Assembly: GCA_964615315.1 (NCBI GenBank)
Contig: CAZTMZ010000003.1
Coordinates: 45,565 to 69,564 of the forward strand
From: an uncultured Eubacteriales bacterium
GTDB taxonomy: Bacteria > Bacillota > Clostridia > Oscillospirales > Acutalibacteraceae
Length of the DNA: 24,000 nt
Reading direction: 5' to 3'
In this document: in pieces, positions 5,255 through 18,905 of the stretch
Layout: each line of letters begins with the position of its first letter
How positions within the stretch are numbered: the first letter of the stretch is position 1
Made by a program: the position numbers and the translations under genes
The notes under the pieces: generated by a model
Seen by the model: the letters and a program-made list of their open reading frames with translations, nothing else
What the model was told of the DNA's origin: nothing
Databases searched by the model: none

Positions 5255-5887
5255 ATGAGCTGTTATGTAGAAAAAGTAATAAAAATTGCAAAGGCCGAAA
5301 TCGGCTATTTAGAAAAGGCAAGCAATAGTAATCTTGATAATAAGACTGCAAATGCAGGAGATAAAAATTACACTAAGTACGCTAGGGATTTGGACAGCAT
5401 TTCTGGTTTCTACAACGGAAAGAAACAAGGGTATCCTTGGTGTGATGTGTGGTTTGACTGGCTGTTTGTTCAAGCATACGGCGTTGAAAGTGCAAAAAGA
5501 TTACTTTGTCAGCCTAACAAGTCGCTAGGTGCTGGTTGTCAGTACTCTATGAATTACTATAAATCAAAAGGACAGCTCTATACTACTCCTAAAATTGGAG
5601 ACCAAATATTTTTTAAAAATAATTCTGATGAGATTGTTCACACGGGGTTTGTGTACGATGTGGATAAAACATATGTATATACAATCGAGGGCAATACGTC
5701 TTCTGCCAGTGGCGTAGTCGCTAACGGTGGCGGTGTATTTGCTAAAAAATATAAATTAACATATGAACGTATCGCGTGTTATGGTAGGCCAGCTTATGAC
5801 ACGGTTGAAAATAAAAATAATACAGCCGCCCATGTGGCAAATGGAGGGACTTGTACTGTGAATCTTAATGTGTTGAAAAAAGGAAAT
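5255..5887 (+). CDS. Endolysin exon 1: CHAP/NlpC-P60-type catalytic domain
   Basis: Catalytic Cys context GYPWCDVW, His context EIVHTGFVY, and TIEGNTS. The exon ends ...VLKKGN on U5887. The TAA at 5888-5890 is the first triplet of the intron. Confidence 0.85.
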
Positions 5888-6345
5888 TAACTAATGCAAT
5901 TTCTAAGCCTAGGTGTAACCGGGCGATTGCATTAGTATAGTTTCCGTATACAGAAATGTGTATGAAAAATTACTCACTGAATTGCTGGAATCCCCTAAAG
6001 CCTATGACGCTACAACGCGAGTCGTAAGACCGAACGTGAATGCAGTGAAAACAGAAAAAAGACATAGGATGATATATGGTTAAATCCTAAGTATCGTAAC
6101 AATGGGCAATCAGCAGCCAAGCTCCCAATTATTGACAACACAATATGAATGTGCTATAATAGTTGTGGAAAAGGTTCAACGACTATCCCGCAAGGGAGTA
6201 GGACACAAGCGATTGGTGTCCGAAGTGGTGAGCACCTAAGTCTCTTATGAGATATGGCGAAGATATAGTCTGTGCTCTACTGAAAGGTAGAGGCGCGAAA
6301 GCGCAGCGAGGCGTAGCGAGCCGATAGGAAAACAACCTTTTCTTA
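5888..6345 (+). ncRNA. Group I intron ribozyme core (IA2-like, with P7.1/P7.2)
   Basis: P1: ggaaaU(5882-5887) pairs with Gtttcc(5940-5945). P1 carries a perfect 10-bp extension hairpin, ctaatgcaat(5891-5900)/attgcattag(5926-5935). P2: gtatac(5946-5951)/gtgtat(5958-5963). Core elements: P aattgctggaa (5980-5990), Q caatcagcagc (6107-6117), R gttcaacgactat (6174-6186), S aagatatagtct (6260-6271). P7 is gactat/atagtc. GNRA-capped hairpins follow: ccc-gcaa-ggg and gcgc-gaaa-gcgc. From memory, the 3' core closely resembles the phage T4 td intron (AACGACTATCCC...GAGTAGG...GAGATATAGTCTGCTC). Confidence 0.85.
6132..6160 (+). promoter_or_regulatory. Perfect sigma-A/sigma-70 consensus promoter inside the intron (P6 region), facing tnpB
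   Basis: TTGACA (6132-6137), a 17-nt spacer (6138-6154), then TATAAT (6155-6160). A TG at 6152-6153 gives an extended -10 (TGcTATAAT). The homologous ORF-less intron has only a short hairpin at this position. Confidence 0.6.
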
Positions 6346-6369
6346 TCATGAATGAGAGGAGGTGCAACG

Positions 6370-7509
6370 ATGATTAAATCTTTTATAGTAAGGTTATACC
6401 TAACGAGAATACAAGAGGAGCTGGCGTGGAAGCACGTTGGCGCTTGCAGGTTCATTTGGAATTATATGCTTGACTACCAGCAGAGGTTATACGAATCAGA
6501 AAAGAAGCATCTACCTGCCTTTAGTATGATAAAACTTCTAACTCCGTTGAAGAATGACGGAGAGCATGGCTGGCTGTACGACGTATCGAACTCTTCCTTG
6601 CAAACAATCTGCCGCGATTTGGACGGAGCCTATCAGTGTTTCTTTAAGAAGGCTGCCGGTTTTCCGAAGTTCAAGTCGCGTAAGAAGAGTAAATCGAATT
6701 TTCCTGTATGCTGCAATAGATTCTACTTTGCAGACGAGAACTTCGTACAGATACAGAAGCTCGGCAAGGTTCGTTTCAAAACGGACTTTGAGCTTCCGAT
6801 TGGACGCGAGCATAAGTTCCTGAACCCCAGAATTTCCTACGTTAATGGGAAATGGCTACTGTCTTTTAGCATGGAGTGCGAGAACCAAGCGCCTGTATTG
6901 ACAGACAAGCCCATGGGTATAGATTTAGGTATTAAGGATTTAGCAGTGGCAGAATTTGACGGAAGGCCCATTGTCTTTCATAACATCAACAAGTCGAAGC
7001 GTATGCGGCAGCTCAAGCAGAGGCAGAAGCACTTGCAGAGAAGTATCTCCCGCAAGTACGAAGCGAATCGCAAGGGCAACCAGTATGTGAAGACGAAAAA
7101 CATTGAAAGGCAGGAGGAACAACTCCGCAAGCTCTATTCTCGAATCACGAACATCCGAACAAACTACATCCACCAAACCACACACGTTTTGGTTTCTCTC
7201 CTGCCTTGTCGAGTCGTCATGGAAGACTTAAACGTACAAAGCATGATGAAGAACCGACATCTGAGCAAGGCAATTCAGGAGCAGGGGTTCTATGAATTCA
7301 TCCGCCAAATGCAGTACAAGTGCGAGTGGAACGGTATCGAGTTCGTTCAGGTTTACAGGTTTTATCCGAGCAGCAAGACATGTTCCAAATGCGGCAACGT
7401 CAAGCGGAACCTGAAGCTGTCGGACAGAACGTATCATTGTGATTCGTGCGGAGCAGTAATTGACCGAGATTACAACGCTGCCATTAACCTTAGCAGATAC
7501 GTAGTCTAA
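6370..7509 (+). CDS. tnpB: TnpB RNA-guided DNA endonuclease (379 aa)
   Basis: RBS aggagg lies 7 nt before ATG 6370; the track start at 6352 is unlikely. The N-terminus MIKSFIVRLYLTRIQEE..CRFIWNYML is typical of TnpB. RuvC-I GIDLGIKD, RuvC-II VVMEDLNV, zinc ribbon CSKCG...CDSCG, and RuvC-III IDRDYNAAINL are all intact. Confidence 0.92.
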   Translation: MIKSFIVRLYLTRIQEELAWKHVGACRFIWNYMLDYQQRLYESEKKHLPAFSMIKLLTPLKNDGEHGWLYDVSNSSLQTICRDLDGAYQCFFKKAAGFPKFKSRKKSKSNFPVCCNRFYFADENFVQIQKLGKVRFKTDFELPIGREHKFLNPRISYVNGKWLLSFSMECENQAPVLTDKPMGIDLGIKDLAVAEFDGRPIVFHNINKSKRMRQLKQRQKHLQRSISRKYEANRKGNQYVKTKNIERQEEQLRKLYSRITNIRTNYIHQTTHVLVSLLPCRVVMEDLNVQSMMKNRHLSKAIQEQGFYEFIRQMQYKCEWNGIEFVQVYRFYPSSKTCSKCGNVKRNLKLSDRTYHCDSCGAVIDRDYNAAINLSRYVV

Positions 7510-7633
7510 TTGAAGAGACTATGGTCTTGAGGTGTTGTTGCACCTTTAAGCTGTGGAGAGCCATACAAACTTGAGTAGTTACGACGAAAGAGGGCTTGAT
7601 GAAGCAGTAAGTTTAGTTTGCTAAACACAACAG
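7510..7633 (+). ncRNA. IStron 3' structured region: candidate omega-RNA scaffold ending at the 3' splice site
   Basis: Hairpins: agac/gtct, aggtg/cacct and gtttag-tttg-ctaaac. They lie just before ...acaacaG7633. The position relative to the tnpB stop matches the TnpB omega-RNA paradigm. The scaffold probably starts inside the tnpB 3' end. Confidence 0.55.
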
Positions 7634-7819
7634 AAAAATAGTTCCGTAAAAGCATTGCAAATATTGTTAATTGGAAATGGCTATTCTTGTGGCTCTTATG
7701 GCGCAGACGGAGATTTCGGTACGGGAACGTATAATGCGGTTGTAAAATTTCAAAAAGCAAAAAAGATTGGCGCAGATGGAATTGTTGGAGCACAAACATG
7801 GGAGAAGCTATTAAAGTAA
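7634..7819 (+). CDS. Endolysin exon 2: PG_binding_1 cell-wall-binding domain
   Basis: Translation: KNSSVKALQILLIGNGYSCGSYGADGDFGTGTYNAVVKFQKAKKIGADGIVGAQTWEKLLK*. This fits the PG_binding_1 pattern (V..LQ.LL...GY.....DG.FG..T..AV..FQ......DG.VG..T...L). It has no start codon or RBS of its own. The frame is closed upstream at TAA 7622-7624. Confidence 0.85.
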   Translation, partial: KNSSVKALQILLIGNGYSCGSYGADGDFGTGTYNAVVKFQKAKKIGADGIVGAQTWEKLLK

Positions 7820-8853: not shown

Positions 8854-10275
8854 ATGGGTAAGAAGTTAACTAAAGAAGAATTTATTAAAAGGGTTTATGA
8901 AAAAAATGAGCATGTAAGAAATGGAGAACTTGAGATTCGTGGAGAGTTCGTTGGGACAAAGGAACCAATAGAATGTTTTTGTACAATCCACCATGTTTTA
9001 TGGAACCCTAGACCGGACGATTTGTGGAAAGGAATTGGGTGTAGACAATGTGGGAGTGTAAAAACAGCGGACAAAAGGCGTGTAGATGCGGACACAATTA
9101 ATAGACGATTAGAACAAATAAATAATGGCGTTAAAATGATTGGTAAATGCTTCGGCGTTAGAGCGGAAACTGAGTTTCAATGTAGTTTGAATCATACATG
9201 GAGAGATCGACCTATTGATATTTTGAACGGCGTAGGATGCCCATATTGTAGCGGACATCGTGTTTGGGTTGGATTTAATGATTTATGGACAACACGTCCT
9301 GATGTTGCGAAGTTGTTATTGAATTCTAACGATGGCTATAAATATACATACGGTTCTAATAAAAAATTAGAATTTATTTGTCCAATTTGTGGGTCTATAA
9401 TAATAAAGTCCGCAAAAGAAGTCTGTCAAAATGGATTAGTTTGTCAACTTTGCTCTGATGGTATTTCATATCCAAATAAGCTTGGCAGGTTGTTATTAAC
9501 ACAGCTCAATGTAGAGAATATAAGATATGAGTGGAGCCCGGATTGGATCCAATCTTATTCTTACGATAATTATTTTGAATATTGTGGAAAAGCATATATT
9601 TTAGAGTTTGACGGTGGACTTGGGCATGGTAAAAAGAAATATAAATCAAATGAGCGCGATGTTATTGGCAAAGAAAGAGATATTTATAAAGATCGTTTGG
9701 CAGCAGATCATAATATAAAAGTTATAAGAGTCGATTGCGATTACACTGGAAAATGTAATGATCGTTTTATGTATATAAAAAATAATATTTTACAAAGTGA
9801 ATTGTGTAGCATTTTTGATTTGTCTTGTGTTGATTGGGAATATTGTGATTGTAATGCGCAAAAAACATTGATAAAACAAGTTGCGGATTTATACAATCAA
9901 GGTTTAAGCGTATCAGAAATACAAAAGATTGTAGGTTATTATATTAATACTATCCGTAAATGGTTAACTACGGCATCTAAATATAATTTATGTAATTATA
10001 ATAGAAAAGAGTCTAAAAGAAGAACAACTGATTCTATATACCGTTATATTAATCAATATTCTACAAATGGAGAATTTGTGAGAACATATAAATGTGTAGC
10101 TGAAGCCAGTGAAATTACTGGAGTTGATGATTCTTCGATTTATGGATGTTGTAAACATTATTCTGGGCATAAAACCGCAGGTGGATTTTTATGGTTTTAT
10201 GCTACAGATCTATATCAACCAGATAAATCAAAGATTATTGAATTAGCAATACAAAATGAATGTAAGGAGGTGTAA
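8854..10275 (+). CDS. Free-standing protein resembling a homing endonuclease: Zn-ribbon repeats + Vsr/PD-(D/E)XK-like core + HTH/NUMOD1-like DNA-binding C-terminus
   Basis: RBS ggagg is present. There are three Cys/His ribbon modules (CTIHH..CRQCG; CSLNH..CPYCSG; CPICG..CQLCS). The core motif YILEFDGGLGHG...ERD..KD is typical of Vsr/DUF559-type nucleases. An HTH follows (GLSVSEIQKIVGYYINTIRKWL). The C-terminus reads INQYSTNGEFVRTYKCVAEASEITGVDDSSIYGCCKH..KTAGGFLWFY, typical of phage homing-endonuclease DNA-binding repeats. The gene looks visibly AT-rich. Confidence 0.55.
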   Translation: MGKKLTKEEFIKRVYEKNEHVRNGELEIRGEFVGTKEPIECFCTIHHVLWNPRPDDLWKGIGCRQCGSVKTADKRRVDADTINRRLEQINNGVKMIGKCFGVRAETEFQCSLNHTWRDRPIDILNGVGCPYCSGHRVWVGFNDLWTTRPDVAKLLLNSNDGYKYTYGSNKKLEFICPICGSIIIKSAKEVCQNGLVCQLCSDGISYPNKLGRLLLTQLNVENIRYEWSPDWIQSYSYDNYFEYCGKAYILEFDGGLGHGKKKYKSNERDVIGKERDIYKDRLAADHNIKVIRVDCDYTGKCNDRFMYIKNNILQSELCSIFDLSCVDWEYCDCNAQKTLIKQVADLYNQGLSVSEIQKIVGYYINTIRKWLTTASKYNLCNYNRKESKRRTTDSIYRYINQYSTNGEFVRTYKCVAEASEITGVDDSSIYGCCKHYSGHKTAGGFLWFYATDLYQPDKSKIIELAIQNECKEV

Positions 10276-10278
10276 CCG

Positions 10279-12250
10279 ATGGAAATTATAAACGCTTTTA
10301 AAACTGTAACTGAACAAATTAAATCTTGGGTTGACGAGAATAAAGTGCAAAAAGTAAGCGGGAAAGGACTTTCTACAAATGATTATACCAATATAGATCG
10401 CCAAAAAGTAGAAGAAATGCCAAATGACTTAATGATTCTTAATGGAAAATTATATCTTGCACAGGATGGAACCCCAATTGACAGTTCTGCGGTACAGCTT
10501 CCTGAAGGTGGTGGCGGAGGCGGTGGTTCGAGTGCTACGATTACATTAAAGAATTTGCTAGATTCGTCCATCATAACATCTGCCGTTGGAAATTCAGTAG
10601 TTTTAAAATTCAGTTTTGCATCGTCTGAGGCAGATAGTGGTATGGCTTATATTTATGTCGGCGGTGTTCTGAAGGGTACGGCAGCTATAATTGCCGGAAG
10701 CAATACGTTGGATATTTCAGAATATGTTGGAGAAGGTTCCAATGAAGTTAAATTAACATGTATGGACGTGTATAGCAATAGTAAAAGCTTGGCGTATACT
10801 GTCAACATGGTTTCGTTGAGAGTGACATCTACTTTTGATGATTCTCAAGTTTATTCGGGCGATATTAGTGTTCGTTATATTGTTTATGGTGCAGTAGAAA
10901 AAACTATGCATTTTGTGGTCGATGACACAGATACCACTGTAACAGTAAGTGAAACTGGAAAACAACGAACACAGGTTTTACCAGCAATGTCGCATGGAAC
11001 ACATTTATTAAAAATTTATGCAACGGCTACAATTAATGGTGTTGAAGTTAAAAGCAACGAATTATTGTTTGATATATTGTGTGCCGTGGAAGGTGCGACT
11101 ACTCCGATGATTTCTTCTGCCTGTAACGTTATATCTGTAACCCAAGGAGAATTGATTAATATTCCATTTGTGGTTTATGATCCTTCTAATATGGAAACTG
11201 AAATTACTCTTACTATATCGCAGAATAACGAAATATACTTCACTTCTATGAGAACCGTAGATCGTACAAAACAAACTTGGAGTATAAGAAATTATCCTGT
11301 TGGCGAAGTAACTTTTACTATTACATATGGTGCTATTAGTAAAAGTCATATGATAACTGTTGCAGAGAATAATATTGATGTTTCTGTAAAAACAACGGAT
11401 TTAGAATTCCAACTTAGGGCGGCAGGTAAATCCAACGAAGATACGGATCGCGACACTTGGACTAGCGGCGACGTAACTACTATGTTCGAATACTTAAACT
11501 GGGAATCTACTGGTTGGGTTGCGGACGATGACGGTGATGTTGCTTTAAGGTTGTCTGGTGATGCAAAGGCAACAATTAATTTTATGCCGTTTAAATCAGA
11601 TGCTCGTCAGACAGGTAAAACAATTGAAATGGAATTTGCCATTCGTGATGTTAATAATCGCGATGCCGTTGCGATTTCTTGCTTGAATGGCGGTATTGGT
11701 TTTACTGTTACTGCAGATACGTTTGTAATGACAAGCGAACAGACGAAAATTAGTTGCAATTATACTGATGAAGAAAAGATAAGAATTGCTGTTGTAATTG
11801 AGCCACGTAGTGAATACCGTATGATGAGCGTTTATTTGAATGGTGTTTTATCTGGTGTTGAACAGTACCCCGAAACAGATAACTTTCAACAAACGTCTCC
11901 TACGAATATCGTTATTGGTTCTGAATATTGTTCTGTTGACTTATATACCATCCGTTCTTATGATGTAGCATTAACCGCAGATGAAATTAAAGACAATTAT
12001 ATTGCCGATATTACTGACATTAGTGAGAAAGCAGCGTTATATTCGGACAATGATATCTATGATGCGTTTGGTAATTTAAGCTTTTCTGCACTGAAGGATA
12101 AAATACCTGTGTTGGTTATTACGGGCACTTTGCCAACATATAAGGGAGATAAGAGAAAAGTAACTATTGCGTATACAGATCCACTAAATCCCAGTCTGGA
12201 TTTTGAGGATAGCGCAACAATTGATGTACAAGGCACATCAAGTCAGTATT
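10279..12250 (+). CDS. Giant tail/receptor-binding protein, exon 1
   Basis: RBS aaggagg is present. Fibre motif KVSGKGLSTNDYTNIDRQKV, a Gly7 linker and beta-rich domains. The exon ends ...IDVQGTSSQY + t at U12250. The track ORF runs on 35 nt into the intron, to TGA at 12283-12285. Confidence 0.8.
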
Positions 12251-12620
12251 CGAAATTTGGATACCGTATTGAGAAATCAGTATGAAAAAATACTCGTTTA
12301 ATTGCTGGAACACCCTAAAGACAAATAAACTACAACGTAAAGATGAAATATGCTTAAGCGTGAATGTTATGAAAATAGAAAAAAATATTTGTATGAGAGC
12401 GAGGTTAAATCCCCTGCTCTTTTTTAATGGGCAATCAGCAGCGAAGCCGTGAATAACGGAACGTTCAACGACTATTCTGAAAGGAAGTAGGCTGTAAGCG
12501 ATTGACAGTCGAAATGGCGAGGACCAGAAATGGTTAAGATATAGTCTATACTCAATGGAAACATTGAGAAGGAGAAATCCTTAGCACAGGAGTAGCGTCC
12601 TATGTTTAATACAATAGATG
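12251..12620 (+). ncRNA. ORF-less group I intron (370 nt), homologous to the IStron ribozyme
   Basis: P1: gtatUc(12246-12251)/ggatac(12259-12264), with U12250-G12260 at the splice site. P2: gtattg(12266-12271)/cagtat(12278-12283). Core elements: P aattgctggaa (12300-12310), Q caatcagcagc (12432-12442), R gttcaacgactat (12463-12475), S aagatatagtc (12536-12546). GAAA-capped P9 hairpins: ctcaatg-gaaa-cattgag and aagga-gaaa-tcctt. The terminal G12620 is the only G that both lies after the in-frame TAG (12593-12595) and restores the frame. Confidence 0.85.
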
Positions 12621-15600
12621 TTCGTAAAAACTGGAAAATTAAAACTTCAGAATATCATACATTAGATTTAGATCAAGTTCCTACAAAAATATTTTGCTGG
12701 AAGGCTGACTATGCTGAGGCGACTGGTAGCCACAACACGAGTACGGCTAATTATGCTCATATATTATATGGAGATGCTAAAACTCCGCCGCAGGAAGCCG
12801 ATTCTCGTGTAAGAACTACTGTTTATGGAAGACCAAGTGTAATTTTTCATAAAGCAGATAGTAGTTCGGACCCCGTATTTTACGGAAAGGCAAATGCAAA
12901 TATAGATAAAGGAGCACTTGAATGCTTTGGTTTTACTGAAGATTATTCAGATGCCCAGTGTGTAGAATTTTGCAATAACGTTTCAGAGGCATGTTTATTC
13001 CACAAAGAGATATCAGATGATTGGTCTGATGACTTTGAATTTCGTCAGCCCGATGGATACACGGATATCTCTGACTTCAAAATTGTACACGATTGGACAG
13101 TTAGCACATGGCAAGATGGGGCAACTGGAACTGCATTGAATGGATCGTATACAGGCATTGATGGTACTGTTTATACTAATGATACTGCGGCATATAGATT
13201 AGCAAAATTCAAGAAAGAATTTACAGATTATTATAATTTGGATTTTTGTTTAGTTTATTATGTGTTGACGTTTGTGCTAATGTGCGTAGACCAACGTGCG
13301 AAGAATATGTTTTTAACAACTTGGGACAAGGTTCATTGGGAGCCGTGGTTTTATGATAATGATACAATTTTAGGCATTAATAACGAAGGTAGATTGGTCT
13401 TCAGTCCTTTTTTGGAGGATGACGATCAGCTTGATGGAGCAAATGTTTTTAATGGAGCCACAAGTGCCCTTTGGGTGAATTTTAGAGAATCTTTCCCTAA
13501 TGAGATTCAGGCTTTGTATGCTTCTTGGCGTAGCGAAGGATTGTTAAGTTATGATCAGATAATTGAATATTTTATAACTCGCCAAACTGACAAATGGTCT
13601 ATTTCAGTTTACAGTGAAGATATAGATTTTAAGTATGTCTCTTTGCTGAGAGATGATGATGATGGTACTTACTTATATCAAGTAAGAGGTACTGGTGAAG
13701 AACATTTAAGATACTTTACTAAAGCTAGACTTAATTACTTAGACTCTAAGTGGTGCTGCGGTGATTATCCAAGTGATTACGTTTCGTTGCGTATTTATAC
13801 TCCAATGGATGAAAATAATAATCCACTAACTAATTTGCCAGTAGCTGCCAATCCAGATATTACGATAACACCTTATGAAAACACCTATGCAGGCGTTCAA
13901 TTTGGCGCAGGTAGTAACATTAATCAATATAAGGCGTATCAAAATGTTCCAATTACGCTTAAGTGGACAATGAATGGTTCTCCTAATGACCTTGAGACTT
14001 CGGTATTCCCGGCTTCTCAGATTAGTTCTTTGGGTGATTTGTCTCCTTTGTATTGCGGCACGATTAATGTTAGCAAAGCAGAGAAGTTAACTGAATTAAT
14101 TGTTGGCAATCAAACAAAAGGTTATTCCAATAACAATCTAACTGAATTGGCAGTTGGTGCCAATAACCTATTACAAAAAGTAGATATTTGTAACTGTCCT
14201 AATCTAGTTAAACCATTAGCGCTTTCTAACTGTCCAAATATTCAAGAAATTTATGCAATAGGTTCTGGTATTACTGGTCTTGAGTTGCCAACCTCTGGTT
14301 ATCTAAAGAAGGTGTATTTGCCAAATACTTTAACCAACCTAACAGTAACCAACCAACAATATATTGAAGAATTCGTTCTCGAAGGTTATGACAATTTGAC
14401 TACTCTTCGTATTGAAGATACTGTTAATATTCCTGTCGAAGACATAATGCTTAATGCGCCGAATTTGAATCGTATTCGTCTTATTGACGTTCAATGGGAA
14501 GCAGAGTCTGAGGCAGCGCTTGTTCAAACAATTGAAAAATTTAAGTCTTGTTTGGGTTTGGATGCTAACGGCAATAATACTGAGAACGCCATTGTTACCG
14601 GTAAAGTGCATGTCGCAGAGAAAGTCTCCAATGAAGTTTTCGGTGATGTTTATAATAGTTTCCCAGATCTTGTTATAGATGACGGCAGTGAAGAAATCTA
14701 TATTCTTAACTACAAAGACCGTGATGGTAAAATATTATATTCTACTAGAGTCGCAGAAGGGGCGAATGCGATAGATCCGATTGCACAGGGTTATATTGAG
14801 ACCCCAGACCCAATTATAACAGACACATATAGATATGAATTCGTCGCTTGGAGTACATTGCCAACCAACATTCAGAGGCATTATGTAATTATTGCGCAAT
14901 ACCACACTAAGTTTGCTATTAAATTTTATAATGAAGAAACATTATATTATACTCAGTGGTCCGTACAAGGCGACCCAGCTATCGACCCTGTTGTATCCGG
15001 CGCAATCACAGCTCCAACCAAGTCTGGCACGTCCGATATAAGCTATAAGTTCTCTGGTTGGGACAACCTGCCAACGAACGTTCAATCCACAGTTAACGTA
15101 TATGCTCAATACGATACCTATTGGGCTGTAAGATTCTGGAACGACAGTGTATTGTATTTAACAGAGTGGATCATCGAAGGTGGCAAACCCGTTAATCCTA
15201 GCACTTATTCCGAGGATTATACCAATCCAACTCGTACAAGTACGGCGCAATATGACTATCACTTCTCTAGTTGGGATGGTGACTTTGATACCGAAGTAAC
15301 ATCAACAAGAGAATTCTACGCCGTATATTCCAGTACAATTCGTAGATATAATGTCTACTTCTACAATGATAACGAACTGCTATACACCGTAGAAAATGTC
15401 CAATATGGTAGCAGTGCGTCTTATAGTGGTAGCACACCAACAAAACTCGGCGTTGAAGATCCAGACGAATACGTATTTAAGGGCTGGCTGCCTGCGCCTG
15501 AAAATATCACTGGCGAAACTAAATGTTATGCGCTGTATAAATTTACTGGTTACCTATTTGGTAAGTTAGGCAAGACTGATGATGACGATCAAGGCTATGG

Positions 15601-16321
15601 AACAGTTGATAGTCCAAACTGGGATGCGATCAATGCCTATTGGACAACTATTGCTGCTGATGTCTCATCCTACCAAAATGGTATTTTGGCAGAAGATGAT
15701 TTTACTGCAAAATATCAAATTGGTGGCCGAATGATTGTTCCAATTAACCTTTCGGATGGTACATCTACTATGGCAGATGTTGAAATTATTGCACACAACC
15801 ATGATAATCTAGCGGACGGCTCTGGTAAGGCGGCTTTAACATTCTTCTGTAAAGATCTTCCGCAGGTTCAGCGTGCTATGAATGAGTCTACTGTACTTAC
15901 TGGTTATAAAGATAGTATAATGCGTACTTTTGTCAATGAAGAATTGTTTGGCGTTCTTCCCAATGAACTAACGTTGGTAATCAAACCCGTAAAGAAAATT
16001 TCTGATGGTGGTGCGCAAAATCAGACACTAGTAACTACGACGGATTATTGTTGGATTGCGTCATATGATGAAGTTGGTTTTACTTCTGGTGGCTCAAATA
16101 TTTCTGGGCAGGGAGAGTTGTATGATGAAATATTTTCTAACAATAACAGTCGTAAAAAGTATATAACTGATAGCACCGATACTGGTGGATGGTGGCTGCG
16201 CACGTCAGTTCGTTCTACAAATTTAAGCAGCACTATGTTTTACAGAGTTCAGAAGTCGGGTGCGGCATATACGGATATTCAGACGAATCAATTTTATGTT
16301 GCATTTGGTTTTTGTATCTAA
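12621..16321 (+). CDS. Giant tail/receptor-binding protein, exon 2: CotH-like domain, LRR region, four Listeria/Bacteroides-type repeats, C-terminal WWLR domain
   Basis: The splice junction reads GTSSQY-F-RKNWKIK, which fits a CotH-type motif. A CotH-like core is present (DQRAKNMFLTTWDKVHWEPWFYDNDTILG). LRRs span about 14040-14480 (LTELIVGN..LTELAVGAN..CPNLVKPLALSNCPNIQEIY). Repeats span 14699-15538. The C-terminus contains GGWWLRTS. The spliced product is 1890 aa. Confidence 0.8.
14699..15538 (+). repeat. Four tandem coding repeats of about 70 aa (Flg_new / Listeria-Bacteroides repeat-like)
   Basis: The units start YILNYKD, FAIKFYN, WAVRFWN and YNVYFYN. Each ends in Y.F.(A/G/S)W....V......YA.Y (EFVAWSTLP..IIAQY; YKFSGWDNLP..VYAQY; YHFSSWDGDF..FYAVY; YVFKGWLPAP..CYALY). 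Confidence 0.7.
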
Positions 16322-16418: not shown

Positions 16419-17021
16419 ATGACTGGTTTTGAAGAATTTTTAACTCTATTTGGAGGCATTACGGTTTCTCAAATTGTCGTTTTTGTGTTTGCGGTTATCT
16501 TTTTATTCTCTGTCTATAAAGAGATTAAAAAGTACGTCAACGTAAAAATTAAAGAACAGCAAACAAAAGCAGATGAAGAAAAGAATAACAAAAAGAAACT
16601 TGAAGAAGCGTGGGTCGCAACACAAAAGTATCCAGAGTATCGTAAAAAAAGTTTAGAAATACAGGAACTTCTTGAGGGCGAAATCCAAGAAGTAAAAAAC
16701 ACAGAAGAGACGGTAACAGAAGAATTAAAGAAACTGTCTTTACGTCTTGAAAAGATGGAGGAAGACACGAAACGCCGTGAGCGTAATCGTCTCAGAGATC
16801 TGCTGCTGAATCATTATCGTCATTATACAAACAAAGAACTAAATCCGTCACAATCATGGACGAGCATGGAAGCGGAGACATTCTGGGCGTTATTTAGCGA
16901 TTATGAGGATGCAGGTGGAGATGGTTACATGCACACTACGGTTCAGCCAGAAATGGAACGTTTACTAGTTGTGAACGTAGGTGAACTACCACAGACCGTA
17001 ACGGCCTGTGGCTTCCATTAA
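16419..17021 (+). CDS. Hypothetical membrane-anchored coiled-coil protein; its 3' end runs into the IS left end
   Basis: RBS gggagg is present. N-terminal TM segment ITVSQIVVFVFAVIFLFSV, followed by a charged coiled-coil. The last roughly 18 codons (from about 16966) and the stop codon lie inside the IS200/IS605 left-end hairpin structure. Confidence 0.6.
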   Translation: MTGFEEFLTLFGGITVSQIVVFVFAVIFLFSVYKEIKKYVNVKIKEQQTKADEEKNNKKKLEEAWVATQKYPEYRKKSLEIQELLEGEIQEVKNTEETVTEELKKLSLRLEKMEEDTKRRERNRLRDLLLNHYRHYTNKELNPSQSWTSMEAETFWALFSDYEDAGGDGYMHTTVQPEMERLLVVNVGELPQTVTACGFH

Positions 17022-17031
17022 ATAGTTCACC
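16980..17031 (+). repeat. IS left-end (LE) subterminal hairpin
   Basis: Outer 9-bp stem: ggtgaacta(16980-16988)/tagttcacc(17023-17031). Inner hairpin: ccacag(16989-16994)...taa...ctgtgg(17006-17011), with an inner GC stem ccg/cgg. It has the same architecture and the same CCACA/TGTGG core as the RE hairpin. Confidence 0.7.
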
Positions 17032-17268
17032 AGACTAAGTATTCAGAAACGAATACTACGATGATTACATTATGACACCCTTGGTTGACGCAACAGACCA
17101 CTGCTCTGTCGTATATCTTTAAGTTGGGTTGGAATAAGCAAAGCCCTGTGAGATATACATGTAAGTGTATTCATCATTGTCGAGTTGAGGACGGAACAAT
17201 TGTATGGTAACAGTACAATGTAGTACGCATTACCTGCCATTAGGCAGAGTATTTATAAGGAGAGGCTT
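17032..17268 (+). ncRNA. Candidate IscB omega-RNA scaffold (may extend 5' through the LE to about 16966)
   Basis: A long non-coding leader lies immediately 5' of iscB, which is the canonical omega-RNA location. Hairpins: agtattc-agaaac-gaatact (17038-17057), attgta-tggtaacag-tacaat, and ctgcc-atta-ggcag just before the RBS. No ORF is present. Confidence 0.5.
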
Positions 17269-18543
17269 ATGGTTTATGTAATTTCACAAGATAACAAACC
17301 ACTAATGCCTTGTAGTAATGCGATAGCAAGATTGTTATTAAAACAAGATAAGGCAAAAGTTAAGAAACGCAAGCCATTTACAATTAAATTGACTTATGAA
17401 ACAACAAATTATACACAAGAACTAACTTTAGGTGTTGATACTGGAAGTGGAACAATTGGCACTGCCGTTAGTAAAGATAATGGAGACATTGTTTACATGT
17501 CGGAGGTTATTGTCAGAAATGATATTACTGATAAGATGACACAAAGAGCAAAGTATCGTAGAAACAGACGAAATCGTAAAACTCGATATAGAAAGGCAAG
17601 ATGGTTAAATCGTGCCAATTCTATTAAAAATGACAGATTCAGTCCTACAATGCAAAGTAAACTTCATAGTCATGTAAAGGAAATAGAGTATATTAAATCC
17701 ATTCTTCCGATTACAAAAATGGTATTTGAAACTGGTCAGTTTGACACTCACCTTATGAAGAATCCATGTCTTGCAAATCCTAATGTAAGACATTGGGGAT
17801 ATCAAAAAGGTACAAATTATGGATTTGAAAACACAAAAACGATGGTTCTTAATCGAGACAATTATACTTGTCAACATTGCAAAGGCAAACACAAAGACAG
17901 TAAATTAGAAGTTCATCATATCGTATTTCGTAGTCAAGGTGGTTCAGATGAAGAAAGCAATTTAATCACACTTTGTCATACTTGTCATAAGAATTTACAT
18001 GACAGAAAAATTAAATTAAATCTTAAAGGCAAAACGAAAGGCACACTTAAATATGCCACACAAATGAATTCTATTAGAAAACAACTTTTCAGATTATATC
18101 CTGATGCGATTGAAACATTTGGATATGTAACAAAAACAAATCGTTTACAGTTAGGTGTAGATAAAGAACACTATTATGATGCTTGTACTATTGCGGCACA
18201 AGGGAATAGCTTTACTGTGAAAAGCAATCTCTATAAGAAAAAGTCTATTCCTGATGGTGATTTTCAGAAAACAAAAGGCATTCGTTCCGAGCAACCTATT
18301 ACAACTGGAAAGATTTGTGGATTCAGAAAGTTTGATAAGGTTCGCTACTTTGGAAATGATTATTTTATTAAAGGAAGAATGTCAATTGGATATGCAATTC
18401 TTATGGATATAGATGGTAACAAAATTGATTTTTCAGCAATGCCTAAAGGTTACAAAACACCAAAGATGGTAAATCTAAAAAGATTGGAGGCTCGGTCAAC
18501 ATGGATGATTACAACCGTGGTGGTCACTCCAAATACAGCATGA
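17269..18543 (+). CDS. iscB: IscB RNA-guided nuclease (424 aa; Cas9-ancestor type, RuvC with inserted HNH)
   Basis: PLMP motif at residues 11-14 (QDNKPLMPCS). RuvC-I LGVDTGSGTIG (D57). Arg-rich bridge helix KYRRNRRNRKTRYRKARW. RuvC-II MVFETGQFD. HNH CQHCKGK..LEVHHIVFRSQGGSDEESNLITLCHTCHKNLH. RuvC-III EHYYDACTIA. A C-terminal domain of about 100 aa follows. Confidence 0.92.
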   Translation: MVYVISQDNKPLMPCSNAIARLLLKQDKAKVKKRKPFTIKLTYETTNYTQELTLGVDTGSGTIGTAVSKDNGDIVYMSEVIVRNDITDKMTQRAKYRRNRRNRKTRYRKARWLNRANSIKNDRFSPTMQSKLHSHVKEIEYIKSILPITKMVFETGQFDTHLMKNPCLANPNVRHWGYQKGTNYGFENTKTMVLNRDNYTCQHCKGKHKDSKLEVHHIVFRSQGGSDEESNLITLCHTCHKNLHDRKIKLNLKGKTKGTLKYATQMNSIRKQLFRLYPDAIETFGYVTKTNRLQLGVDKEHYYDACTIAAQGNSFTVKSNLYKKKSIPDGDFQKTKGIRSEQPITTGKICGFRKFDKVRYFGNDYFIKGRMSIGYAILMDIDGNKIDFSAMPKGYKTPKMVNLKRLEARSTWMITTVVVTPNTA

Positions 18544-18905
18544 AAGTGCATCTGATATTTGTAACCAAATATCGCAAGAAAATATTCAAATCAGATAAGC
18601 GAGCAGATGATGTCAAACAGTCTTTGTATGACACAGTTAAGAAATATGGCTACAAAATCATACAAATGGAAACTAACAAAGACCATGTACATATATTACT
18701 TGAGTATAGTCCAAAGGTGTCTGTTGCAGACATTGTAAAACAACTCAAGCAGTATAGTACATACCAGATGTGGAAATATCATGAAGAATATCTATCCAAA
18801 CAGTATTGGAAACACAAAATACTTTGGTTTGACGGATATTTTGCTTGCAGTATAGGGCAAGTTTCTCAAGAAATTATTGAGAAGTGTATTCAAAACCAAG
18901 GTTAA
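18501..18905 (+). CDS. tnpA: IS200/IS605 Y1 (HUH) transposase TnpA, with Cys at the catalytic Tyr position
   Basis: RBS ggagg lies 10 nt before the ATG. The gene overlaps the iscB 3' end by 43 nt. Motifs: VHLIFVTKYRKK, and HUH in NKDHVHILLEY. The C-terminal helix ...SQEIIEKCIQNQG aligns to IS608 TnpA ...LNVVKQYIENQ, where Y127 is the nucleophile. Here the codon is TGT. Confidence 0.9.
   Translation: MDDYNRGGHSKYSMKVHLIFVTKYRKKIFKSDKRADDVKQSLYDTVKKYGYKIIQMETNKDHVHILLEYSPKVSVADIVKQLKQYSTYQMWKYHEEYLSKQYWKHKILWFDGYFACSIGQVSQEIIEKCIQNQG

Follow-up and report, generated by a model that had tools for sequence, protein, structure and literature searches.

An endonuclease-free group I intron is predicted to interrupt a single, probable tail or adhesin gene of an uncultured phage

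Introduction

Two large open reading frames (ORFs) follow each other on the + strand of the window (i.e., the entire stretch of 24,000 nucleotides analyzed here), one at 10279..12285 (668 aa) and the other at 12602..16321 (1239 aa), and the 316 nt between them raise the question of whether these are two genes or one gene broken by an insertion. In a public assembly, the identical sequence is recorded with two genes, of 668 and 1239 aa. The earlier note on this DNA had described the two ORFs and their spacing just as the ORF list of the window gives them, had anticipated the two-gene annotation that the public assembly indeed carries, and had proposed that a group I intron devoid of ORFs separates the halves of one tail protein. 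We consider it very likely that positions 12251-12617 are an IA2-type self-splicing intron within a single gene for an 1891-aa multidomain phage protein, probably a tail protein or adhesin.

Results

A full-length group I ribozyme between the two ORFs

The whole window was scanned against Rfam at gathering thresholds, and positions 12239-12568 matched the group I intron family RF00028 at 74.6 bits (E 1.7e-17; gathering score 50) over the full length of the model (positions 1-253 of 253). The same family is found at the same gene position in the relatives L004-L008 (62-75 bits). The core motifs P, Q, R and S (AATTGCTGG, AATGGGCAATCAGCAGC, GTTCAACGACTA and AAGATATAGTCT) are present in exactly two copies each in the window, one set in this intron, where P and Q are located in the P4/P5 region 12303..12440, and the other in the ribozyme of an IStron-like element at 5940-6292; overall, the two ribozymes are 65.5% identical. 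The longest ORF inside the intron has 56 aa and no Pfam hit. Several expectations of the earlier note are thereby borne out, i.e., that the intron is ORF-less, that its P, Q, R and S elements are nearly identical to those of the IStron (each motif occurs once per ribozyme), and that a search with RF00028 would recognize it; the ribozyme model, whose failure to fit had been named as a refutation, fits with all its helices intact.

The structure (Table 1) was drawn by hand from P1 to P9.2, including P6a, P7.1, P7.2 and P9.1, with P7 written as a pseudoknot, and every helix so drawn consists of standard pairs in the window copy. Twelve introns were aligned, i.e., the two of the window, four from the same site in other contigs and six found via a 23-nt core motif. 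In this alignment the hand-drawn structure has 88.2% of cells paired and changes on both sides in 56 of 82 pairs, a score reached by none of 500 shuffles, and slid controls gave 13-25 pairs. RNAalifold found compensatory changes in 30 of 50 pairs for the same 12 introns, and the minimum free energy fold of the window sequence gives most of the helices (z = -3.3). Introns of subgroup IA2 are defined by two hairpins, P7.1 and P7.2, placed between P7 and P3', and by a P9 domain that is extended to comprise P9.0, P9.1 and P9.2 (PMC4227781). Among these hallmarks, P7.1, P7.2, P9.1 and P9.2 are all paired and covarying in the window intron (P9.0 was not identified), and judged by its hairpin layout against this definition, we designate it IA2-like. 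It appears to be a genuine IA2 group I intron that has no endonuclease gene and is probably active.

Table 1 Coordinates of the predicted intron, its structural elements and the flanking exons in the window
Feature	Position	Strand	Remarks
5' exon of large gene	10279..12250	+	657 codons + T12250, first base of split Tyr codon
P1 hairpin	12246..12264	+	exon GUAUU + intron C12251 pair with internal guide sequence GGAUAC (12259-12264)
Group I intron, IA2-like, without homing-endonuclease gene	12251..12617	+	367 nt; RF00028 and covariation
P2 hairpin, GAAA loop	12267..12282	+	4 of 6 pairs compensatory
TGA in frame with 5' exon	12283..12285	+	11 codons into intron; end of annotated 668-aa ORF
P3 5' strand (CUCG)	12293..12296	+	pairs with 12518-12521; 4 of 4 pairs with compensatory changes
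P4 (12303-12308 with 12435-12440) and P5 (12313-12315 with 12429-12431)	12303..12440	+	
P5 long extension	12321-12327/12386-12392, 12395-12400/12416-12421	+	two helices; conserved GG-UUAAAU-CC hairpin
P6 (12441-12443 with 12462-12464) and P6a (12447-12450 with 12456-12459)	12441..12464	+	
P7 5' strand (GACUA, in element R)	12470..12474	+	pairs with 12542-12546; 100% paired
P7.1 (12475-12486, GAAA loop) and P7.2 (12490-12510)	12475..12510	+	between P7 and P3'
P3 3' strand (CGAG)	12518..12521	+	
P8 hairpin (ACCA-GAAA-UGGU)	12523..12534	+	
P7 3' strand (UAGUC, in element S)	12542..12546	+	
P9 (12551-12568), P9.1 (12569-12582, GAAA loop) and P9.2 (12588-12601, conserved GUAGCG loop)	12551..12601	+	
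Intron 3' tail AUGUUUAAUACAAUAG	12602..12617	+	last base G12617
3' exon	12618..16321	+	stop codon 16319-16321

Splice sites

The 5' exon, which is collinear with the uninterrupted homologues, ends in ...GTA CAA GGC ACA TCA AGT CAG TAT T. In P1, G12246-C12251 pairs with G12259-C12264, with a U12250.G12260 wobble at the 5' splice site. About 62 predicted database proteins stop a few residues past VQGTSSQ[YW], and at first sight they resemble what had been given as a refuting observation, i.e., homologues that end at the ORF boundaries as separate proteins. However, nearly all of their C-terminal tails (such as SKFGYRIEKSV, SKFWIPY and SNLATVLRNQYEKILV) result from translation that reads through into P1/P2, in three frames, and these would therefore be intron-containing genes rather than separate proteins. 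Owing to the same property, the guide sequence can be read from the truncated proteins themselves. Where the exon codon is TGG (Trp), the guide has C opposite the exon G in 40 of 40 cases (GGCUAC, GGCCAC, GGCUGC, GGCUAU), and where it is TAT (Tyr), the guide has A or G in 17 of 17 (GGAUAC or GGGUAC), so that guide base and exon codon co-vary in all 57 homologues, with no exception; the co-change is also seen on the DNA of L004-L007. We regard this exon/guide covariation as direct evidence, at the level of sequence comparison, that P1 is under selection across the family. Together with the wobble, it confirms the predicted 5' splice site after U12250, where the earlier note, reasoning from P1, had also placed it.

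For the 3' splice site the same note had chosen G12620, as the sole downstream G that clears the in-frame TAG at 12593-12595 and restores the frame. The TAG does share the frame of the downstream ORF, but G12617 serves equally well: an intron ending there is 367 nt long (1 mod 3) and leaves an open frame past the TAG. With G12617, the 3' exon opens AT GTT CGT AAA AAC TGG, which completes the Tyr and continues V R K N W, and the spliced product would read ...GTSSQY-YV-RKNWKIK (1891 aa) from a ligated junction CAGUAUU|AUGUUCG, i.e., ...AGTCAGTATT|ATGTTCGTAAAAAC. With G12620, the intron would be 370 nt, the cDNA junction CAGUAUU|UUCGUAAA (TATT|TTCGT) and the product ...GTSSQY-F-RKNWKIK (1890 aa). 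Inspection found no convincing P10 (P1 loop versus 3' exon) or P9.0 pairing, and the choice is thus made on comparative evidence only. The codons for VQGTSS and RKNWK are exactly 12 nt apart in the uninterrupted viral loci L001-L003; the exons of the window reproduce this spacing with G12617 (CAG TAT T + AT GTT), whereas G12620 reduces it to 9 nt. All 24 homologues that read straight through the junction (obtained by a junction-region search) have VQGTSSQ[YWF][YF]x[RKV]KN, i.e., two residues where the G12620 model has one, and the position lost in that model holds Tyr or Phe in each of them. At the equivalent of 12620, L004 (..CAATAG|ATATT) and L006 (..CAATAG|ACAAT) have A, which leaves no conserved terminal G at that position, and five of five introns at this insertion site end in AG followed by A[T/C]. 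Moreover, when the exons of L007 are joined (..CAGTGGT + ACGTTGTT.. / ACGTTGTTAAAAAC..), they line up collinearly with L010, where the site is empty (..CAGTGGTATGTTGTC.. / CAGTGGTATGTTGTCAAAAAC..). Based on the 12-nt spacing and the A at the equivalents of 12620, we therefore take the intron to be 12251..12617, its predicted terminal G lying 3 nt further upstream than had been proposed. A splice site after G12620, although in frame and downstream of the TAG, is very unlikely, and we discard it in view of the exon spacing and the sequences of the relatives. Aligning the spliced protein with uninterrupted homologues, a check suggested at the outset, thus supports the collinearity of the exons and at the same time exposes the residue missing from the G12620 product. 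Apart from this 3-nt error, the intron had been recognized correctly.

A single gene

PHROG 14959 matches both ORFs, in order (profile positions 487-1149 and 1428-1994), and the earliest possible start of a stand-alone downstream ORF in L004 lies about 230 nt within conserved coding sequence. Because of these two observations we interpret the locus as one long gene (10279-16321), not two, that is predicted to be interrupted by the intron and was split by gene calling. The downstream genes called in L005-L007 likewise begin within conserved coding sequence. Megablast of the region against GenBank phages returned no match, blastn in distant mode recovered the ribozyme core only, and the exact junction peptide is encoded by no contig in the viral (IMG/VR) or JGI metagenome collections.

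The interrupted protein

Neither of the two ORFs nor the fused protein has a hit to Pfam CotH (PF08757) at E<=1, and we rejected a direct Pfam CotH assignment of the window protein on this ground; searching the PDB by sequence, first with the protein alone and also with a profile of 24 sequences, brought no meaningful match. PF08757 is, however, matched by 14 of the 24 junction-spanning homologues (37-69% identical; best E 1.7e-13). In one of them, P0013, profile positions 1-320 extend over residues 80-440, i.e., the CotH profile begins two residues ahead of VQGTSS at residue 82. The AlphaFold (AF2) model of a 70% identical homologue (P0001, pLDDT 76) has as its sole PDB match at E<=0.001 the Bacillus cereus CotH kinase 5JDA/5JD9 (E 2.3e-6, TM 0.52), and the junction falls in a loop between strands 192-200 and 213-221 of this model. 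This loop position therefore suggests that the intron sits at the N-terminal edge of a CotH-kinase-like domain, a link established on the homologues and the P0001 model and not on the window protein. An earlier proposal, that the junction lies inside a CotH-type motif, is thus supported indirectly, by the homologues' PF08757 hits and the structure model, and finds no echo in Pfam for the fused window protein.

The rest of the protein shows a weak ConA-like lectin hit, a C-terminal DUF6273 and, by eye, LRR-like repeats. An endolysin gene and a holin-like ORF are among the neighbors, which also have weak tail-fiber/tail-repeat hits (PTR, E 5e-4; phrog_300, E 4.8e-4). From gene neighborhood and domain content we infer, reasonably in our view, that this is a tail or adhesin protein.

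Relatives and intron mobility

About 62 database homologues carry an intron at the window's site, and L001-L003 and L010 are uninterrupted there. In L005-L008, examined on DNA, the intron measures about 1155 nt and houses a 250-aa GIY-YIG/NUMOD3 homing endonuclease gene (phrog_314, E 7.6e-37) between P9.2 and the last 13 nt of the intron, a gene from which the window copy and L004 are cleanly free. The window copy may be a derivative, or a precursor, of the mobile intron of these related phages. This phage lineage is represented by uncultured contigs, about 90-230 kb in size, that apparently originate from animal guts. More broadly, the ribozyme core is 70-76% identical to unannotated introns in phages of Staphylococcus (Twortvirinae), Enterocloster, Clostridioides, Bacillus and Alicyclobacillus. 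L008 (GCA_017481725.1, JAFUOX010000026.1, 94 kb) has the same lysis/tail-gene arrangement and the intron inside a 'Kiritimatiellae bacterium' MAG, and probably represents either a phage contig that ended up in the bin of a bacterial genome or a prophage.

A second site of interruption was found in about 28 homologues (P0015-P0042), which are intact at the window's site and carry a break between ..F[LV]G and KYN.N, about 90 codons further downstream. On DNA, this insert spans about 5717-6699 in L009 and about 5742-6671 in L010, and holds an ORF of 243-246 aa, with a NUMOD3 hit in L009. After GGU it opens with a P1-like hairpin (UUGGGU/GCCCAA in L009 and, by a compensatory change, GUGGGU/GCCCAC in L010), its last base is G, and RF00028 does not match it even at E<=10. 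This insert is probably another group I intron, different from that of the window, with its core split by its own endonuclease gene.

The exact 23-nt core motif AATGGGCAATCAGCAGCGAAGCC also occurs at L012 5858-5880, L013 5238-5260 and L018 9114-9136. These loci, where RF00028 gives no match at E<=1e-3, could be fragments or introns with large internal insertions. Contigs with multiple copies of the ribozyme are L011 (3855-4201 and 13275-13581), L017 (two copies) and L015, and RAGATH-18 RNAs lie near the ribozymes in L011 and L015; both the intron-only and the IStron forms therefore seem to spread within related phage genomes. In the window, a free-standing HNH/NUMOD1 homing-endonuclease-like ORF (8854-10275, 473 aa; phrog_559, phrog_9084) lies 3 nt before the intron-containing gene, and is missing at that position in L004, L006 and L007.

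Other elements in the window

Besides the intron, the Rfam scan of the window returned the ribozyme 5940..6292, a RAGATH-18 RNA at 7550..7610 and a HEARO RNA at 16981..17197. The first two belong to an IStron-like element (about 5940-7610) that splits the endolysin gene (5255-7819) and consists of the ribozyme 5940-6292 (RF00028, 84 bits), a TnpB ORF at 6352-7509 with OrfB_IS605 and Cas12f1-like TNB domains, and the RAGATH-18 RNA 7550-7610. Upstream of it lies the catalytic ORF of the endolysin (5255-5890), and downstream of it, judged by eye, peptidoglycan-binding-like sequence (..VKALQILLIGNGYSCG..GADGIVGAQTWEKLLK*, end 7819). The endolysin ORF stops about 15 codons short of the intron, at an in-frame TAA (5888-5890); past this stop, the frame runs on as MQFLSLGVTGR to the IStron (5888-5932) and resembles the start of a peptidoglycan-binding domain. 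This TAA could mark a pseudogene or stem from an error in sequencing, or else translation could start separately at ATG 5894. The HEARO RNA (99.5 bits) overlaps the end of ORF 16419-17021 and is followed by an IscB-like ORF (17269-18543; RRXRR and HNH domains) and an IS200-type Y1 transposase (18501-18905), which together form an IS200/IS605-family element with an RNA-guided nuclease (16981-18905).

Discussion

Could the two ORFs nevertheless be separate genes, with a ribozyme-like spacer that is splicing-dead or never was an intron, and with the second ORF translated from ATG 12602? Gene callers yield exactly these two products, about 62 database proteins end at the end point of the first ORF, and this ATG, the start chosen by ORF finders, has the RBS-like AGGAG (12588-12592) 9 nt upstream. 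However, the AGGAG forms the 5' strand of P9.2, a conserved hairpin that the IStron ribozyme has too, the ATG itself sits in the intron 3' tail, and the ends of nearly all the truncated homologues, as described above, translate intron sequence. L004-L007 have no start codon near the exon boundary, which would leave conserved codons untranslated, and the split would cut one CotH-like fold between two strands of a single domain. Given also that neither a terminator nor a promoter is predicted in the spacer, and that each core helix is intact, with changes that are compensatory and not disruptive, we hold two separate genes to be decidedly unlikely. A chance match, or a degraded ribozyme fragment without function, would have to be reconciled with the E-value and full-length match to all 253 model positions, with covariation in every helix and with an insertion site conserved across dozens of phage contigs, and its probability is next to nil.

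It is conceivable, though unlikely, that splicing acts as a switch or competition device or, alternatively, that the intron is mobilized in trans by the upstream HNH/NUMOD1 endonuclease (collaborative homing); the gene arrangement is the sole argument for either. Were splicing a switch, unspliced mRNA would yield a 668-aa N-terminal protein (virion-attachment, lectin-like) ending at the intron TGA, spliced mRNA would yield the full 1891-aa CotH/LRR/repeat adhesin, and splicing efficiency would set the ratio of the two tail products. Collaborative homing with the upstream HNH ORF was discarded, as the endonuclease-less copy L004 has no such endonuclease upstream.

Our preferred reading thus remains a self-splicing intron in a single gene. 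From the observed ribozyme identity, structure, boundaries and occupied and empty sites we infer splicing in vivo, by a mechanism that is proposed here because it is standard for group I introns. P1 would form by pairing of the guide GGAUAC with the last bases of the 5' exon, and a free guanosine bound in P7 would attack after U12250 of the U.G wobble; the terminal G12617 would then occupy the G-site, and the 5' exon would attack after it, ligating ...CAG UAU U to AU GUU CGU... and giving ...GTSSQY-Y-VRKNWKIK.... The early in-frame TGA may halt ribosomes ahead of the ribozyme core, a role that we base on PMC3984707.

The main value of this result lies in annotation, as an 1891-aa phage protein is listed in public assemblies in the form of two hypothetical proteins unrelated to each other. 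The same truncation affects about 62 homologues, and at least five predicted proteins start within the 3' end of the intron. Such split annotation makes domain searches miss a CotH-kinase-like domain and raises the apparent number of protein families. The phage genes into which group I introns have inserted, mostly genes of DNA metabolism, are also joined here by a structural or adhesin gene. In addition, one homing site offers a natural series (empty, with an endonuclease-less intron, and with an intron carrying a GIY-YIG endonuclease), and other relatives have a second, different intron about 90 codons downstream; the series could be used to study the gain/loss cycle of mobile introns in uncultured phages, apparently of animal guts. 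How group I introns work is unchanged by these findings, the type of element being well known in phages.

Among the systems to compare is the IStron-like element of the window itself, which shares the P/Q/R/S motifs and the P7.1/P7.2 and P9-P9.2 layout with the intron. IStrons of the CdISt1 type (an IA2 intron combined with IS200/IS605) carry the IS element at the intron 3' end (PMC4227781), whereas relatives of the window intron have an endonuclease gene after P9.2. The window intron is devoid of IS element, TnpB and guide RNA, its relatives' cargo is a GIY-YIG endonuclease and not a transposon, and it occupies one conserved homing site instead of following a TTGAT-like pentanucleotide. By the definition of IStrons, i.e., TnpA and/or TnpB of IS200/IS605 or IS607 in the 3' part, the 367-nt intron is not one of them.

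The IA2 introns of Staphylococcus Twort-/K-like phages (Twortvirinae) are of the same ribozyme class, with a core identity of 69-74% along about half to three-quarters of the query's length (blastn), and likewise reside in phage protein-coding genes, tail genes among them. Group I introns in phage structural genes have indeed been described before, including the Twort tail tube gene (PMC4227781; PMC11878797), orf142, which contains introns (PMC11878797). In comparison, the window intron is in another host gene (for a CotH-like multidomain protein) and another phage lineage, and its splicing is predicted, whereas the Twort introns are reported as spliced. In Staphylococcus phage vB_SauH_DELF3 (L020, LC576631.1, 50694-55508), the annotation divides the tail sheath into two CDSs (50457-51149 and 51495-52259), and an unannotated intron-core match lies just past the tail tube gene (52694-53508), which suggests that unannotated introns are present in tail genes of this cultured phage.

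The Enterocloster phages CB457P1, CB457P2 and CB473P1-3 carry an intron with an I-TevI-like GIY-YIG endonuclease; over 73% of the query, the ribozyme core of this intron shows 74% identity. In CB457P2, the core is succeeded by 'intron-associated endonuclease 1', and two 'hypothetical' CDSs stand in place of the one flanking gene, a layout equal to that of L005-L008, while the window copy has no endonuclease gene. Taking an encoded homing endonuclease as the mark of a mobile intron, L005-L008 qualify, and the window copy and L004 do not. The classical counterpart is td of phage T4, an IA2 group I intron that interrupts a protein-coding phage gene, with the GIY-YIG endonuclease I-TevI and an in-frame stop early in the intron. 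Its endonuclease ORF is in the P6 loop, whereas that of the relatives described here comes after P9.2, and its host gene belongs to nucleotide metabolism, whereas the present one appears to be structural or adhesin-like.
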